Virus record (IMG/VR): IMGVR_UViG_3300030419_004148
Coordinates: 1-64,000 of that record
Strand: one strand, 5' to 3'
DNA from: a virus
DNA: 64,000 nt
In this document: positions 2,465 to 46,752 of the stretch, piece after piece
How positions within the stretch are numbered: position 1 is the stretch's first letter
Layout of the letters: the number at the start of each line of letters is the position of its first letter
The notes under the pieces: model-generated
What the model was told of the DNA's origin: nothing
The model's input: the letters and a program-made list of their open reading frames with translations, nothing else
The model's database searches: none
Translations under genes and position numbers: made by a program

Positions 2465-2542
2465 CCTGCCGTAGTGTAGCCCGGCCCATCATTCCGCCGT
2501 CTTGTGGCGGAGACGCTGGTTCAAATCCAGCCGGCAGGGCCA
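2465..2542 (+). tRNA. atypical tRNA: archaeal Glu/Asp-type body, nominal anticodon CTT (Lys), encoded CCA
   Basis: Acceptor CCTGCCG/CGGCAGG, D-arm GTGTAGCCCGGCCCATCAT, anticodon stem CCGCC/GGCGG with loop GTCTTGT, T-arm GCTGG-TTCAAAT-CCAGC, G73, CCA. Confidence 0.85.
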
Positions 2543-2642: not shown

Positions 2643-4334
2643 ATGAGTGAAAATGAAGCAGTGAAATGTGATAAATGCCGTGAAGTTATAACTAACGATG
2701 AAGTGCTGTCTACTGACGAATATGAGTCATTATGTCAGGACTGCTACGATAGTTTTATCGAATGTGCCTGTTGCAGCGAAGTATATGAAAATGCTTATAC
2801 TTCTACCTGTCACGGCGACCCTATATGCCGTGATTGTTATAATGGCGGCGATGTAGGTCACTGCACATCCTGTGATGCTCAGATTATTCTTAGTCACGGC
2901 GATTATTATTATGATGACCATAGTGGTGAATACTGCTGTTCAGATACGGCAGATTGCACATACTTAGATTGGAGCTGCGAAAGTTGTGGCTGCGAGATGA
3001 CTTTTGAAGAAGCAAACACAGACCACGCAGAGCAATACTTATGTTATGACTGCTACCACAATCCATCTTCTAGCATACAGAGAATGGCAGACAGCTGGAT
3101 AGATAAAGCAGATGTTCACACTAAAAGCTGGTATAAAGATTTAGATGACGGCGCAAAATTCTTTTTAGCTGAGTTTTATAGAAGCCGTGAAGATGAATTT
3201 AAAACCAGCAATCAAATGATAAAGAAAGGTGCTTTAGGTGCTGGAAGTGACAAAGGCTGGTGGGATGGAGAAATTGAAGTGCAAAGTCCTGCGTTTGCTG
3301 ATATGGCAAAAGTCATAGCAGATATATGTTATAGTGACTTATTCTTTGTCAAGCATAAGAAATACGGCCTTTATCATCCATTTAGACATCTATTTCATCA
3401 ATGCTTGAGTTATAGAGATAGGCAAGGAAGCGACACAGTGTATTATAATAGAGTCGGCAGAGATGATGACCCTCAAATAGCATTCGAAGAAGTTTGCAGA
3501 GATTATCACCGCTGGGAATTATACGCCGTTAGACATAATAAGTTAGCAAATATGTTAGCTGAAAACAAAACTGAAGATGGAGCTAATTTAAGAAAAACAA
3601 CCAGCAATATTATGAATCGCTCTTATGCAGATAGATTTGCGCTGTTATCACAAAGAAATAACACATTAGAACAATCATACCAGCAATACTTAACAAATGC
3701 TGTAAATCAAAAATATAAAATCAAAATAGGATTTGACAGCGAAGTAATGATGGACTTAGCAGATTTTAATCAAGTCGTTGGTTCCTGTCAGGATTCAGCA
3801 AATAGAATGTCTTATGCTTTTGGATTTGCAGATATGCTAGTTAATCCTCATCTGCTTGCTTTAATATATGAAGATAATAAAATTATTGGTCGCTCTGTTA
3901 TAAGATTTTGGAAGCATAGCTGGGATGACAGCAATGAAGTAGTTAAGATTGCTCCTTCACGCCTCTATTTAAGCCGTATAACTAATGCTAAGGCTGATGT
4001 TTATGTTGCTCTATTTAAACAAGTTAATGAATGGGCAAAGACAGTTTACGGCATTGATAATTATGAAATAATCGCTTACTCAGATTCACGGCACGACAGT
4101 CCAGTATATAGCTTTATTAGAGGTCATATAACAGGAAGGGATGCCTCACAGCGATTAAATACACAAGTATGGAACACATTTTGGCACAGCAAACCATCCG
4201 ATGATTGTGCTGACTATACTTATTACAAGGATGAAATGCAAAGAGCAGTATACTTTGGACAGCGAGATGGTGATGACTATTCCTGTAAAGAAACACTGCC
4301 GAATTATGGTTATAAAACATTGGAGTTAGATTAA
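2643..4334 (+). CDS. protein with N-terminal tandem CxxC zinc ribbons and a C-terminal possible GNAT/PcfJ-like domain
   Basis: About 8 CxxC-type pairs in the first 140 aa; C-terminal SCQ...LALIY..IIGRSVIRFW...RLY...LFKQVNEWAK..YG pattern; the fold call is inference. Confidence 0.6.
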   Translation: MSENEAVKCDKCREVITNDEVLSTDEYESLCQDCYDSFIECACCSEVYENAYTSTCHGDPICRDCYNGGDVGHCTSCDAQIILSHGDYYYDDHSGEYCCSDTADCTYLDWSCESCGCEMTFEEANTDHAEQYLCYDCYHNPSSSIQRMADSWIDKADVHTKSWYKDLDDGAKFFLAEFYRSREDEFKTSNQMIKKGALGAGSDKGWWDGEIEVQSPAFADMAKVIADICYSDLFFVKHKKYGLYHPFRHLFHQCLSYRDRQGSDTVYYNRVGRDDDPQIAFEEVCRDYHRWELYAVRHNKLANMLAENKTEDGANLRKTTSNIMNRSYADRFALLSQRNNTLEQSYQQYLTNAVNQKYKIKIGFDSEVMMDLADFNQVVGSCQDSANRMSYAFGFADMLVNPHLLALIYEDNKIIGRSVIRFWKHSWDDSNEVVKIAPSRLYLSRITNAKADVYVALFKQVNEWAKTVYGIDNYEIIAYSDSRHDSPVYSFIRGHITGRDASQRLNTQVWNTFWHSKPSDDCADYTYYKDEMQRAVYFGQRDGDDYSCKETLPNYGYKTLELD

Positions 4335-5687
4335 ATGAGCGAAGAAGAACCAAAAGAAGCCATAGTTAAATCTATGAGCGAAGAAGAAATGGCAAGCAAA
4401 AGTCGTTTAACCGCCGTTTACCCCGCCCCAGCAGAACAAATGAGTGACCAGCAATTATTGTATAGGATGTTTTCAATATTCAGTCCTAGCAGCGATGAAC
4501 ACGCAATGATAGCATTTGTCACAAATTATCTCCGTGATAATGAAATAGAGCACCAAATAGATAGTGCTGGAAATATATATTTTAACAATCACGTTGAAGG
4601 AGACTGCCGGATTTTACTGAATGCACATATGGATACCGTAGCAAGTGCTGTGGCAAATGTCATTCAAGTAGAAGAGGATGGGAAAGCTGTGTTTAAATCA
4701 TCAAACAATCAAGTTATAGGTGGAGACGACAAGTGTGGTGTATTTGCTGTATTAAAATGCATCACAGATAGAACAATAACAACGCCGTTAATGGGTATGT
4801 TGAATGTGTCCGAAGAGATTGGCTTAGTCGGTAGTGACTTTGCTATGGAACATCATTCTGACCTGTTCAAAGACGTTGTGTTCTGTATAACGGTAGACCG
4901 CCGTGGCAATACTGAAATTATCACAAAAAACAGCGATGTAGACTTATGCAGTGATGATATGGAAAAAATGCTTGGTGAGTGGGGCAAAGATTATGGCCTA
5001 CGAACTGCTACAGGTTCCATATCTGACGTAAGTAATGTTGTAAAAGCATTAGAAATTAATGGTATTAATTTATTTGCTGGATATTACAATGCTCACTCTG
5101 GTAGTGAAAAAGTCGTTTATGAAGAACTGCTTGAATCAGTTAGATTTATTAAGTTTTTAGTGCCGGAATTACATAAGTATTTCAGCGATAATCCTGACAA
5201 AGTGAAATATGAACCATCAAAAAGCTGGTCCAACTATCCTCGATACGGCGGATATTACGGATATACCGAATGGGGAAGTGGATACGGCCTTAAATCATAT
5301 GGCGGCGTTAAAGTATATGAAACTGCTAACGATGTAGACCATCACGAAGCATTAGATATGTTAGATATGCTGATTGAGGAAATAGAGGACATACAGGATA
5401 ATTACTTTATGTTCGATGCATTACGGCAAGCTGAGACACGATTAAGCACATCTGGAAAATCGCTAGTTATTGAAGAGGGCTGGAATTTATTCTATACTGA
5501 AATGAAAGAATTAGATGCTCACTTACACGTTTATGACGGCGGTGTATTGAAAGGTGGAAAAGCAGAAGATGCAGTTATCTCAATAAAAGTTTTACAAGCA
5601 TTTGAAGATGCAGTTAGCGCTCGCAAAACAGCCGAGCAGTTTGATGTGACTTGGGATGACTTAGATAATGGAGGAGCGACTGACTAA
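4335..5687 (+). CDS. M28/M20-family zinc exopeptidase
   Basis: Motifs AHMDTV, GGDDKCG, EEIG, DRRG, YNAH. Confidence 0.85.
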   Translation: MSEEEPKEAIVKSMSEEEMASKSRLTAVYPAPAEQMSDQQLLYRMFSIFSPSSDEHAMIAFVTNYLRDNEIEHQIDSAGNIYFNNHVEGDCRILLNAHMDTVASAVANVIQVEEDGKAVFKSSNNQVIGGDDKCGVFAVLKCITDRTITTPLMGMLNVSEEIGLVGSDFAMEHHSDLFKDVVFCITVDRRGNTEIITKNSDVDLCSDDMEKMLGEWGKDYGLRTATGSISDVSNVVKALEINGINLFAGYYNAHSGSEKVVYEELLESVRFIKFLVPELHKYFSDNPDKVKYEPSKSWSNYPRYGGYYGYTEWGSGYGLKSYGGVKVYETANDVDHHEALDMLDMLIEEIEDIQDNYFMFDALRQAETRLSTSGKSLVIEEGWNLFYTEMKELDAHLHVYDGGVLKGGKAEDAVISIKVLQAFEDAVSARKTAEQFDVTWDDLDNGGATD

Positions 5688-6013
5688 TGCCTGCTAAAGA
5701 TAGAGACTTAATGATGTGTCCTGATTGTGATAAAGCAGGAACATTACGTCACGTTGAAGAAGATAACAACCACTTTGAATGTTATAGATGCTCTGATTGT
5801 TCTGGAGAATTCTTCCCAGATGAATTAAAGCGTATACAATATAAGACAGTGAAGTTTACGAATGATAACGGCAAAGAAATATATATACCGCTAACACCTG
5901 ACAGAATTGCTAGGTTAAAAGAAGAGGGTGTATATCAAAGAGCAGCCGAAACCAGAAGAAAGCAAACTCTGAATCGCAGAGATAAAAACTTATTACGGAG
6001 GTTAAGAAAATAG
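5687..6013 (+). CDS. zinc-ribbon protein
   Basis: CPDC...CSDC, basic C-terminus, GGAGG RBS. Confidence 0.7.
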   Translation: MPAKDRDLMMCPDCDKAGTLRHVEEDNNHFECYRCSDCSGEFFPDELKRIQYKTVKFTNDNGKEIYIPLTPDRIARLKEEGVYQRAAETRRKQTLNRRDKNLLRRLRK

Positions 6014-6048
6014 GCGGCGTCCACTCACCCCGCTATATTAACCCACAA

Positions 6049-6214
6049 CCAGCAGATAGGGAAGGAGTGCCGTTTCTTACTCCTTTTTGTTTGTTTCACC
6101 AATTTTGGACAGCAAAGAAGCGTCTGGTCGCTAGCCACGCCGTTTTTATGCTGTTGTCGGTAGTAGTTCGGTTCTTCTACCGGCACAATTTGGTGCTCCT
6201 TCCCCTGCAAATGG
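6049..6214 (+). ncRNA. structured RNA closed by a canonical bulge-helix-bulge (predicted 153-nt excised/circular RNA, 6058-6210)
   Basis: CCA-GCAG-[ATA]-GGGAAGGAGTGCC pairs with GGTGCTCCTTCCC-CTGC-[AAA]-TGG; two internal hairpins. Confidence 0.6.
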
Positions 6215-6221
6215 AGAGAAA

Positions 6222-6380
6222 ATGTATAAAAGAATGACAGTAGATTTAGCAGTAAGCGAAGGCTTTGAGAAAGCGCTCGATAAGATTTTCGAGAAGCTTG
6301 GACATATGAAAATATATAATGTTATACAGCGCCCTGATGGGAGCTATTACTTGGAGAAAATATGCAAACAGCAACAATAA
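6222..6380 (+). CDS. small hypothetical protein (52 aa, not in ORF track)
   Basis: MYKRMTVDLAVSEGFEKALDKIFEKLG...; GGAG RBS at 6213-6216. Confidence 0.55.
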   Translation: MYKRMTVDLAVSEGFEKALDKIFEKLGHMKIYNVIQRPDGSYYLEKICKQQQ

Positions 6381-7926: not shown

Positions 7927-10683
7927 TGAACCTGCTTGTGTTAGACGTGGCACAGGCTGGATTGATTTTTCTACAATAGAAAAGAAACGAATAAAGCGTC
8001 GTAAAGTAAAAATAAGGAGAAAGAGAAATGAAGAGAAACTACATAGTAGAACTTGATATAAGAGATATGCAAATGCTAGAAATGTATAGAATGGGATTAG
8101 AACAACAACATCCTGTTAGTGAAGTTGATACTGCTTTACACGATATTTTATGGCAGATATCAGAGCAATACCACGAGAGAGAAATGGAGAGGAATTATGA
8201 ATCGACTAACTAAAGAAGAGTATGCTGAAAAGTATGAAGCTGATGGTCATACCGGACTACCTAAGTGTAAATGCTGTGGTAGAATAGATACTGATTTTGA
8301 TATGTATAATGAGGTTATAGATGAGTGAAACGTTAGAAGATAAATACCAATATATGTGTGAATTGGTTGAGGACCAAGCACGAGAAATATTTGAATATAA
8401 AAAGATAATTGCTGGTGCTCAAAAGGTAGAAGAAGAATTGGAATACTTTGTTCAAAATATTGCTGCTCTTATTTATTATCAATGTTCTTTAAGAGACCAA
8501 GACCAATGGTTAAAGCGAGTAATGGATAAAGGTATTTGGGAACCTGAAGCCATTGAGGAAGAAGAATGAGATGTGTAAGGTGTGGTAAAGATTATATAGG
8601 TATGAAACAGCATCATAAATTTAATTGCCCTCACTGTGGGGGTGACTAATGGTTTGTGTAGATTGCTCTTGTGAAAGGTGTGAACGAGCAAAAAAGGAAG
8701 AAATGGACCAATTCAAAGAGCAGATGAAAATTGAATACCCTGATTGTGTTAAATGGCAGAATGATGATTACAGTCCGTGCTTTTGTGTGAGGTGTTTAGG
8801 ATGAAAAATTGCCCGAAATGTAAAGAACAAGCAAAGTTCGATGAAGGTAATTTAAAAATGGATATATTAGCACATTACTATTGTAGTGAATGTATGATAT
8901 GGACTGAAAATAGACACACTAGCATTTGGACTGACGGTTGTGATGAATTTTATAGTAATGGAAAGGAAAGGAGTATTTGGAGATAATGTATAGCAACGGC
9001 GATTACGCAAAAACAGGACCGCATTTCAGAAGAGGTGGTTATAAACTTTGGAATTGGTGCGTTAAATGTGAGTGTGTGTGGGAAAAGAAAATTAGCTGGT
9101 GTAGAAAATGTAATTCTCGATTAAGGTTTGGAGGGCGTTATATTAGTAGAAGGGAGAAAGAATTAAAAAATGCTCCTAAAGAACAGGTGGTGTATCAAGG
9201 ATGAAAATATTACCTTATAAATACAGAGTAGCGATAGCTTTTTTACATTTTATAATGAGATTATTAGATAAAATATACGAAGGTGAGGACATCTGGGGTC
9301 CAGAAGAGCCGTGGTGGGATACACAATGAGAATTAAAAGGGCGGTAGAAGAGTTATCTTTTTTTACCCTGCCGTTATGGGAAGTAAAGAAGGTGAAGAAA
9401 AAATGAAAATAGTCACTTGTAATACGTGTAGATGTAAGTTAGTATTTGATTATGTGAGATATAGAGACACAGCAGGTAATCCATATTGTCACATATGTTA
9501 TACGAGGTTGCTAGTATGACATTAACTGAATGGTTGATGTTTGTAGCAATAATAGATGGTCCAATATTAGGATTATTATATATGCTGTGGAGGAAGATAA
9601 GATGAATTTATTAACAGACCACGAATCTGGTTTAATTGCTGGGTTTATGTTTGGGTTAGGTATAGGAATAATTATAGGATATTATATTTTATGAAAGTAG
9701 TAGTAGATAACATAGAGATATTAGATATAACGCTCGGTTTATACGGTAATGTTTTTGTTCGTGTTAGAGATATAGATGGGTATGAATACGCAGGTGAACT
9801 CACGGAAGTGATGGAAGATGAATGAATTATGCTTAATATGTAAACATATTGTCACTCCGTATGGAGGGATGATTAAAATCAAAGGAAAATCAATGCATAT
9901 GGAATGTGCTATGATGGAATTTGAAAGTGAAGTAAGAAAAAGAGAGGAATAAAATGAGAAAAAATCATATATTAGTGAAAGAGACAGGAAGCACAGTTTG
10001 TGGTATAACACAGCTATCTGTGCAGGAAAAATACCATATGAGTAAACCATATTGGAATAAATATATTACTTGCTCTAAGTGTAAGAAGGAGTTAGACAAT
10101 GGCTCGTGTATGGCGTGAAGGTGATAAGTGTCCGATAGGGCCGAGATTTACAACAGGTGGTTATGATAAATGGAATTGGTGCTCAATATGCACTGCAATT
10201 TGGGACAAAAAAACACTGCGTTGTAAAAACTGCAATCAAATGACACGTAGTAGAACAAGGTGGAAGTAATGAAGTATAGTGCTAGTTGTGATTGTGGTTA
10301 TGAGACCCCTTTAGTAGAAAATGAAAAAGATATTGATTGGGAATTATTAGAGATACATCAGGAGTTTTGTAAATGATGGAAGATATATGTGATTTTGTTG
10401 ACGGCAGTGGTATTACTGAATGCCCTGACTGTGGTGAGATTGTAGAACCTGAATTTGATGAAAAAACACAAATGGATAAATGTCCTTACTGTTATAATGG
10501 CAAATATATGTATGGTGATGCGTGAAAGTTTGCTATATTTGTAAGAAAAATAAATGTGAAGAACTTTTAGACATTTATTGTTTAGATTGTCGTTGGGATA
10601 TACATCACAGTAGACGGTGGGATAATAGAGACCTTTCGAAAGAAGAGTGGAAACTATTATATAGAAGGTTGAATAATAGCTAA
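7907..10683 (+). other. array of about 20 coupled micro-ORFs (26-82 aa), many CxxC zinc fingers, two single-TM peptides
   Basis: Chained ATGA/TAATG overlaps, e.g. 8566-8649 MRCVRCG..CPHCGGD, 8649-8804, 8801-8986, 8986-9204, 9403-9519, 9516-9605 (TM), 9602-9694 (TM), 10099-10269. Confidence 0.7.
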
Positions 10684-15250: not shown

Positions 15251-16626
15251 GCCAATTTGAATTAACAGATTTAGTTAGATATTTTCATAACGTAAGAAAT
15301 GAAAAAGGAGAGCACGTTCCTATCATAGGAGAAGATAAACTTGCTGTAACAGCTGCTTTATCTTACCTATTAGAAGATACGAATTTTATGATTAACGCTT
15401 ATAGTGGGACTGGTAAAACTGTCATTATGAATGCTGTTTTTAATTTACTGAAGGATACTGGAATACCTTATGTAGTAATAGAGCAAATGTCTGAGACTGC
15501 TTTATGGTATGATATGGACAGAATTAATCAGTCTCGCTTTTTAGCAATACCAGAAGCACAAAAATGTCCAGAAGCTATTATTGAAATTTTAAAGACTTGG
15601 GCAGATGATAGAGAAGCAGTAAGAAAAAGAACTGACGTAACGATACAAGATGTTAGAGAACAAGTATTATTTCCTAAGTATGTTTTTGTATGTAAAGCTG
15701 TAGAAAATAAAAGAGGAGATGCATTTTTAGATGCTGAGTTAGAGAGACGTTATATGGTAACTCATACTAACCCAACAGTTAAACAAACCGAAGACGTTAT
15801 AAAATATAAATTAGATACTTTTGCTAAACCTCACGAAGATTTAGTTACTATGGAAGATAAAGAAATAGATGCACTTAGAAAACATATTGCTGATTGTATA
15901 ATAGAAAGAGATGACACTAGGGGTGTGAAAATAAGGAACCCTTGCGCTCCCTTTTTATATGATTTAATACCTACTTTATTTCCTATAGCTAGAAGTAAAG
16001 TTCATTATTATCTTAAATTAATTAATGCCGTTGCTAGATTTTATCCCGGCGAATTAGTAAGAGTTGAAAGAGATGGTGTTACCTACGGTTTGATAACTCC
16101 TAAACATAATTGGTTAGCTACTCAAATTTATATTGATACGTTTGTAACAGAATGTTTACAAATGCCATCACACGGAGTAGATATTTTAAAATTAATACCT
16201 GATACAGAAATTGATAAGTATGGGATGGTTACAAGCGAAGTAATTAAAATGTCTAAGAAAGAAATACAACAAGCTGCTAGACAAGCAGGGTTACCATTTG
16301 CACAGAAAAATATTAACCCTCTTTTAACATCATTAGTTATGTTAGGATTTTTAGAACAAGATGAGGAAGATAAAAAAATATCATACTTTAAATCTGCATT
16401 AGTTAGAGAACCTAGCACAAAGATAGATTGGTCTAATTTAATGAAAGGCACACAAGCATTAATGAAAGACACTTGGCCTGAAATTGCTGATGAATATAAT
16501 AAGAATTATTGCACTGAAATAGAAGTAGAAGACCCATTTACGAGGGAAAAACAAGTGTTATCTGCTGGTAAAGAAAAAGAAAAGGTGATAGATGACAAAG
16601 TTGACTACGGAGGGTGGTATGCTTAA
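15247..16626 (+). CDS. MCM-like AAA+ ATPase, putative replicative helicase
   Basis: Walker A AYSGTGKT, arginine-finger-like ELERRY, sensor-2-like IARS, C-terminal wHTH-like region. Confidence 0.7.
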   Translation: MSQFELTDLVRYFHNVRNEKGEHVPIIGEDKLAVTAALSYLLEDTNFMINAYSGTGKTVIMNAVFNLLKDTGIPYVVIEQMSETALWYDMDRINQSRFLAIPEAQKCPEAIIEILKTWADDREAVRKRTDVTIQDVREQVLFPKYVFVCKAVENKRGDAFLDAELERRYMVTHTNPTVKQTEDVIKYKLDTFAKPHEDLVTMEDKEIDALRKHIADCIIERDDTRGVKIRNPCAPFLYDLIPTLFPIARSKVHYYLKLINAVARFYPGELVRVERDGVTYGLITPKHNWLATQIYIDTFVTECLQMPSHGVDILKLIPDTEIDKYGMVTSEVIKMSKKEIQQAARQAGLPFAQKNINPLLTSLVMLGFLEQDEEDKKISYFKSALVREPSTKIDWSNLMKGTQALMKDTWPEIADEYNKNYCTEIEVEDPFTREKQVLSAGKEKEKVIDDKVDYGGWYA

Positions 16627-16900
16627 ACCATATAAACCTAAAGGTGAAATGTATGGTGTTGTAAGAGACATTAGCGGTGGTTCAAGATTAAGAGTGTTTT
16701 GTGAAGATGAAAGAAACAGAATGGTTAGAATACCCGGCAAACTAAAGAAAAAGATGTGGGTAAGAGTTGGAGACACAGTTGTTATTAAAAAATGGCCTAT
16801 CCAAGAGAATGAAAAAGCTGATTTAGTTTACAGATACACAAAAACACAAAAGGAAAGATTAATAAGAGATGGAAATATACCAGAGGTGTTACAAATATGA
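16592..16900 (+). CDS. eif1a: archaeal translation initiation factor 1A (aIF-1A/eIF1A)
   Basis: GEMYGVV..ISGGSRLRVFCED...RIPGKLKKKMWVRVGD.V....W..Q.EKADLVYRY signature. Confidence 0.93.
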   Translation: MTKLTTEGGMLKPYKPKGEMYGVVRDISGGSRLRVFCEDERNRMVRIPGKLKKKMWVRVGDTVVIKKWPIQENEKADLVYRYTKTQKERLIRDGNIPEVLQI

Positions 16901-42450: not shown

Positions 42451-42482
42451 TTTTAAGAACCTCTACATTTATTTACAACTCA

Positions 42483-42498
42483 ATTATATTTAAAGGTT
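42483..42498 (-). promoter_or_regulatory. putative late promoter for the tail tube genes
   Basis: AACCTTTAAATATAAT. Confidence 0.65.
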
Positions 42499-42505
42499 TT
42501 GTTAA

Positions 42506-46715: not shown

Positions 46716-46752
46716 ATTTAAATATCACCATCATTTATATTAAAGGTTTTGT

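Follow-up and report, generated by a model that had tools for sequence, protein, structure and literature searches.

Processing at bulge-helix-bulge (BHB) motifs is known for tRNA, for rRNA, and for two cellular mRNAs. The strict form of the motif, in which helices h and h′ flank it on both sides (hBHBh′), is needed by the α4 and α2 enzymes of the splicing endonuclease EndA. Archaeal tRNA introns, including the tRNA-Trp intron with its C/D box sRNA, and the processing stems of 16S and 23S rRNA share this geometry and polarity; the part excised from such substrates is circularised and can itself function as a structured RNA. The permuted SRP RNA of Thermoproteus is likewise structured, its ends form a BHB, and it matures as a circle; that RNA, however, is essential to the cell and has a gene to itself, in contrast to the dispensable viral intergenic cassette described here. 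As defined previously, the archaeal splice motif is a 4-bp helix between two 3-nt bulges, with the splice sites in the bulges and the helix taking in the first two bases of the anticodon (PMC4090602). Among messages that code for protein, the cbf5 pre-mRNA of Crenarchaeota contains a BHB intron (Watanabe 2002; Yokobori 2009, PMC2738675), and HVO_1309 of Haloferax volcanii has a 46-nt BHB intron in the 5′ untranslated region (UTR) of its mRNA, which was found by circRNA-seq and is cut by recombinant EndA (Schwarz et al. 2020, PMC7714728).

The element that we analysed, at positions 6049 to 6214 of a virus genome, has the same hBHBh′ geometry and polarity as the tRNA and rRNA substrates; unlike them, it would belong to a viral mRNA, and its interior shows no C/D box, H/ACA, or K-turn features on reading of the sequence and no Rfam match. 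Like that of HVO_1309, its BHB belongs to an mRNA leader and not to a tRNA or rRNA; removal of the intron shortens the leader of the downstream gene in Haloferax (PMC7714728) and is predicted to do so here as well. The HVO_1309 intron is cellular, short, conserved in haloarchaea, and experimentally verified, whereas the one described here is a prediction from a virus, is missing from the nearest relative, and has hairpins of its own within its 153 nt. Its motif energy of −30.7 kcal/mol is far stronger than the −9 to −15 kcal/mol given for the Haloferax substrates (PMC7714728), although the two were computed by different methods. As with cbf5, a protein-gene transcript is the predicted substrate of the tRNA-splicing machinery, and relatives appear to differ by intron gain or loss; the cbf5 intron, however, interrupts coding sequence and its removal restores the reading frame (PMC2738675), while the present element lies between genes, so that its removal is not required for coding. 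Full-text literature searches that combined BHB, splicing endonuclease, and circular RNA with archaeal viruses turned up no BHB element described from a virus. If the reading given below is true, a viral message that passes through the tRNA-splicing machinery of the host would add a third party to the pathway, and the product would rank as the first circular RNA candidate from an archaeal virus.

The window analysed comprises the first 64 kb (64,000 nt) of the 75,525-bp IMG/VR record IMGVR_UViG_3300030419_004148, which is rated complete. The virus was found in marine plankton metagenomes of at least three studies and is of the HK97-type tailed kind, encoding a terminase large subunit, portal, capsid protein, and tape measure; further genes specify a family B polymerase (PolB), a class II ribonucleotide reductase, a methylase, and a sugar-modification cluster. 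The element sits in a 208-nt spacer between two plus-strand genes, one for a 108-amino-acid zinc-ribbon protein (5687 to 6013), which is 87% identical in a related contig (L003), and a 52-amino-acid open reading frame (ORF) at 6222 to 6380, which is conserved in L003 and in a second contig (L002). The Shine-Dalgarno (SD) sequence of this small ORF is supplied by the cassette in the virus under study, and in L003 the ORF has none. A sequence-only reading had placed the element in an intergenic region of mRNA and not in a tRNA or rRNA, a placement borne out by the gene map and by Rfam, in which no match was found. The zinc-ribbon gene is the last of its block, and read-through from that block would supply the 5′ arm of the element.

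The host of the virus is very probably an archaeon. An archaeal host is essential to any EndA reading, since EndA (PF01974) was found only in four archaeal control genomes. A protein search of the virus genome showed that it encodes neither EndA nor RtcB; given the very probable archaeal host, both enzymes would be present there. Several features point to archaea. At 16592 to 16900 (plus strand) the virus carries a gene for a 102-amino-acid translation initiation factor 1A of the archaeal/eukaryotic type (aIF-1A), which matched Pfam eIF-1a (6e-18) and NCBIfam NF003084 (108.8 bits; cut-off, 91) and no bacterial IF-1 model. In the protein atlas this factor falls with viral clusters of 89 and 148 members and with one mostly archaeal cluster, so that it looks like a recurrent viral gene; no paper on a viral aIF-1A gene was found in the literature searched. 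BRE/TATA-like boxes of the form AAAACC-TTTAWATA lie 29 to 31 nt upstream of the ATGs of first genes that are without an SD. Those of one divergent pair, at 72551 and 72630 (within genome positions 72522 to 72659), each stand exactly 30 nt before such an ATG, and further boxes occur on the minus strand of the window at 42451 to 42505 and at 46716 to 46752, where the box at 46752 precedes an SD-less ATG. Internal genes of the virus carry the SD motifs GGTGAT or GGAGG. Leaderless first genes combined with SD-led internal genes are the archaeal pattern.

A tRNA gene at 2465 to 2542 (plus strand), with anticodon CUU and an encoded CCA, was identified by ARAGORN and by Rfam (47.4 bits), and we take its D-arm to resemble that of archaeal tRNA-Glu/Asp. 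Comparison with GenBank phages gave no blastn match for this tRNA, and tblastn of PolB, the terminase large subunit (TerL), and the major capsid protein gave distant matches or none. The protein atlas places PolB only as "Viruses/Uroviricota".

Folding of the plus strand from 6040 to 6225 with RNAfold gave the same BHB structure as minimum free energy (MFE) and as centroid, the structure that had been drawn before any folding. The MFE was −65.1 kcal/mol (z = −4.1), and none of 200 shuffles folded as well. Reading of the sequence confirmed the two arms originally marked (6049 to 6071 and 6192 to 6214). The 5′ strand runs from the outer helix h (CCA, 6049 to 6051) through the central helix H (GCAG, 6052 to 6055) and a bulge (AUA, 6056 to 6058) into the inner stem h′ (6059 to 6072), which is purine-rich and SD-like. 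On the 3′ side, the inner stem strand (6191 to 6204), which contains CUCC, is followed by CUGC (6205 to 6208), which pairs with GCAG, a second bulge (AAA, 6209 to 6211), and UGG (6212 to 6214), which pairs with CCA. The inner stem is 13 to 14 bp long and includes two G·U pairs; the outer helix, with two G-C pairs and one A-U pair, is marginal at 3 bp.

Two 3-nt bulges thus flank a helix of exactly 4 bp, with further helices on both sides, and the order is h-H-B-h′ on the 5′ strand and h′-H-B-h on the 3′ strand. Read 5′ to 3′, each strand enters the central helix before the bulge, the arrangement of pre-tRNA, where anticodon bases 34 and 35 sit in the helix. The claim of an archaeal EndA-type geometry therefore held: this is a canonical hBHBh′ motif in tRNA polarity, matching the published definition (PMC4090602). 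A canonical intron at 37/38 implies the order outer helix, central helix, bulge, and a cut after the second base of the bulge, and by this tRNA rule EndA is predicted to cut after 6057 and after 6210 (PMC4090602).

In sequence contexts of 186 to 650 nt the pair probability was 0.90 to 0.99 for the central helix and 0.64 to 0.83 for the outer helix; a 1-kb context lowered these values to ~0.6 and ~0.45, respectively. The minus strand folded worse (−53.2 kcal/mol, z = −2.0), because the two G·U pairs become A·C mismatches there, and its bulge order is mirrored. The element is a feature of plus-strand RNA.

The interior, which had been described as two hairpins and a U-rich single strand, folded in that way. 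A U-rich tract (6073 to 6098) that is mostly single-stranded and holds a T5 run (6084 to 6088) is followed by a mini-hairpin (6099 to 6108), by hairpin 1 (6109 to 6154), with a second T5 run at 6143 to 6147, and by hairpin 2 (6155 to 6185). The interior is structured even when folded alone (z = −3.7). Together with its immediate flanks the element forms a cassette of 178 nt (6043 to 6220) that stands out as a GC island, at about 48 to 48.8% GC compared with 38 to 40% in the flanking sequence.

We searched both strands of the 75.5-kb genome with a strict hBHBh′ scanner, which required 3 bp or more in the outer helix, a 4-bp helix with two 3-nt bulges in tRNA polarity, and 5 bp or more in the inner helix, and we scored the matches by arm energy. 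The element at 6049 to 6214 ranked first at −30.7 kcal/mol, with all other sites at about −12 kcal/mol or weaker, and the best site in 249 dinucleotide shuffles of the whole genome reached −22.5 kcal/mol. Arm energy mostly measures the long stem, and we therefore ran a second test in which the stem was fixed and the flanks were drawn at random from the genome. A 4-bp central helix plus 3 outer base pairs then arose at a frequency of 1.3e-3 when G·U pairs were allowed and of 1.2e-4 when pairs were restricted to Watson-Crick; the observed 4 + 3 extra pairs are all Watson-Crick.

The reading that we favour, at a probability of roughly one half, is that host EndA excises the element and host RtcB ligates the products, which yields a spliced leader and a circle of 153 nt. 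The cassette would be transcribed within a polycistronic plus-strand message, and its ends would pair into the hBHBh′ motif. EndA would cut at 6057|6058 and 6210|6211, after the second nucleotide of each bulge. RtcB would then join the exons into a short leader with a free GGAG before the ORF at 6222, and would close the interior from 6058 to 6210, with its two hairpins and U-rich strand, into a circle; this interval is 153 nt long, as the sequence-only reading had put it. The prediction is sharp, with two cut sites, two junction sequences, and a product of defined length: the back-splice junction would join CCCCUGCAA (...CUGCAA) to AGGGAAGG, and the exon junction would join GCAGAU to AUGGAG. 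The points that speak against this reading are that no homologue carries the element, that the outer helix has only 3 bp, that L003 is missing the whole motif, and that a TATA-like box and a competing hairpin lie at the 5′ arm.

For an excised element, the simplest functional interpretation is an intron-like insert, selfish or neutral, that can be tolerated since it is removed by the host. It had also been proposed that splicing gates translation of the downstream ORF. The 3′ strand of the outer helix does overlap the first two G residues of its GGAG SD (6213 to 6216), as claimed; the gating itself appears weak, since only two SD bases sit in a 3-bp helix, and the ORF would have the same AUG and SD before and after splicing. 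A trans-acting role of the predicted stable circle is possible. More generally, archaeal tailed viruses might carry portable BHB-closed cassettes from which EndA and RtcB release circular RNAs, with the present circle acting in trans during infection, a proposal that we regard as speculative and rather improbable. Such a circle could, for example, bind Sm-like proteins or SD sequences through its U-rich strand, which contains CUCCU and UCACC, and would then count as a functional circRNA of the virus and not as a neutral intron. No stretch of 12 nt or more in the circle was complementary to sequence elsewhere in the genome, and reading of the interior sequence revealed no convincing C/D box, H/ACA, or K-turn features. 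The predicted circle corresponds to 51 codons, and one of its frames, which includes an AUG, has no stop and would run on endlessly around the circle; we give this frame no weight because it is expected by chance in roughly 1 of 12 cases.

The strongest rival reading takes the element for a structured leader or insulator that stays unprocessed, its BHB shape being incidental and not used by EndA; we hold this to be unlikely, if still a serious contender. The 5′ arm and the U-rich tract would end the upstream operon, a TATA-like box would start a long leader, and CUCC would mask the GGAG of the ORF at 6222. The 5′ arm and the U-rich tract can indeed pair with each other in an alternative, terminator-like local hairpin (6051 to 6095; −16.9 kcal/mol, z = −2.5), which on folding grounds may form first during transcription, and a terminator consensus scan matched 6059 to 6088 plus the T-run, with a stem rich in G·U and A-U pairs. 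A TATA-like box lies at 6032 to 6041 (plus strand) and is conserved in L003, where its spacing would allow the small ORF to be translated without a leader from its second in-frame ATG. By the 30-nt spacing rule derived from the SD-less first genes of the virus itself, this box would place a start at ~6062 to 6066, inside the 5′ arm. A transcript from 6063 cannot form the motif; its predicted fold has a local hairpin and, separately, pairs the 3′-arm CUCC with GGAG. That the cassette brings an SD absent from L003 also fits such an arrangement.

Other evidence speaks against the insulator. It leaves seven extra Watson-Crick pairs in exact 3-4-3 register unexplained (P ~1e-4). The TATA-like box is without the A-rich BRE of the strong promoters of the virus and may therefore be weak or inactive, and a terminator placed 20 nt past the promoter of the same transcript would make little sense. 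Hairpins are not required for archaeal termination, and the T5 runs of the virus give no sign of hairpin dependence. Sense-strand T5 runs occur 42 times inside virus genes, compared with 35 expected, and the polymerase gene contains T7 runs; since T5 runs are not avoided in genes, the two inside the element are poor evidence for a block to read-through, and we rejected them as strong evidence of one. The stretch from the stop of the upstream gene to the 5′ arm contains no T-run, which, with the tolerance of T5 runs inside genes, makes read-through into the element plausible.

A stable linear noncoding RNA of unknown class, with paired ends and trimmed by nucleases other than EndA, seems improbable to us. 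The structured interior and the GC-rich island would suit it, and long terminal stems are common among stable RNAs. Rfam 15, however, gave no match at gathering thresholds and noise alone at E values up to 10; no terminator follows the 3′ arm, where an SD and an ATG lie within 10 nt; no other copy was found in IMG/VR or among GTDB genomes; and the bulge register is explained no better than by an insulator.

Relatives of the virus are scarce. A 259-amino-acid protein encoded downstream had four homologues among 5.8 billion proteins, and scans of IMG/VR with this protein, a peptidase, and the zinc-ribbon protein, as single sequences or alignments, returned no relative. A metagenome scan recovered L002, which is short upstream, L003, which is without the element, and a contig of the same virus (L004). 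L003 is a 32-kb marine contig collinear with the window at 72 to 88% DNA identity, and the proteins upstream of the element are 85 to 87% identical between the two. The blastn alignment breaks between window positions 6042|6221 and L003 positions 3377|3389, so that 178 nt (6043 to 6220) stand against 11 nt. Since L003 is without the whole element, the cassette is dispensable, and this comparison suggests that it was gained or lost recently. L003 is not simply an intron-less allele, because the whole motif is absent, including its "exonic" halves and the GGAG. The difference in presence nevertheless suits an intron-like cassette, and if the element is processed as predicted, the two collinear genomes would form a natural intron-plus/intron-minus pair that bears on the spread of BHB introns.

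Near-identical strains from four marine runs keep the element with one change in 166 nt. This sole variant among strains at least 99% alike, C6180T, turns the G6160-C6180 pair of hairpin 2 into G·U and so keeps a pair. The DNA contigs of these runs showed no splice joints, and none of the 22 runs listed for the virus was of RNA. The element is single-copy, with no second copy in the genome. An arm pattern gave 22 matches in IMG/VR, all unrelated and mostly from a giant-virus repeat; a stricter arm pattern found only unrelated Burkholderiales repeats in GTDB (one genome per species), and a hairpin-2 pattern found no match in IMG/VR. As the searches of the genome, IMG/VR, GTDB, and Rfam yielded no diverged copy, the structure is without covariation support.

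Other small, gene-sized indels also separate the window from L003: an extra 55-amino-acid ORF at L003 positions 3530 to 3697, and about 430 extra nt in the window, whose differing stretches lie at 9516 to 9950 and 10212 to 10521. The early region thus appears, from this alignment, to be mosaic in a cassette-wise manner between the two.

An element acting at the DNA level, as a miniature inverted-repeat transposon, a recombination site, or a replication or packaging signal, could account for the 13-nt terminal inverted repeats, for the presence/absence polymorphism relative to L003, and for the other small cassettes that differ there. We consider it very unlikely, as the element occurs once in the genome, searches of IMG/VR and GTDB genomes gave no further copies, the two positions at which the arms differ preserve pairing in plus-strand RNA only, and offset 3-nt bulges would be meaningless for DNA repeats. 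Membership in the miniature inverted-repeat transposable element (MITE) class was rejected, the inverted repeats being present without a target-site duplication or multiple copies. A functionless chance inverted repeat has nothing specific in its favour beyond the element being a singleton whose conservation is known only among near-identical strains, and it is hardly credible given that none of the 249 whole-genome shuffles reached the energy of the element, that its fold has z = −4.1, and that only one change occurred across the four marine runs, a weak point since those strains are at least 99% alike.

Contigs of two runs (X5 and X20) end at 6174 and pick up again at 6214 or 6239, around the 3′ arm; these breaks may reflect strain heterogeneity or an effect of assembly and prove nothing by themselves. 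The Burkholderiales matches (L028, 170 to 787, from a metagenome-assembled genome, MAG; L027, 5864 to 6012) are tandem units of ~150 nt spaced 233 nt apart. At the borders of each unit lies a 13-nt inverted repeat with the same sequence as the viral stem arms, flanked by CCTTCCCCC/GGGGGAAGG; the units are a bacterial repeat family and no kin of the viral cassette. The giant-virus MAG GVMAG-S-1035145-40 holds at least seven copies of an element of ~130 nt (L005, L009, L011, L012, L014, L020, and L023) that looks MITE-like, with long and perfect inverted repeats at its ends, where AAACGAAGATTTGGGAAGGAGGAACAAA faces its complement.
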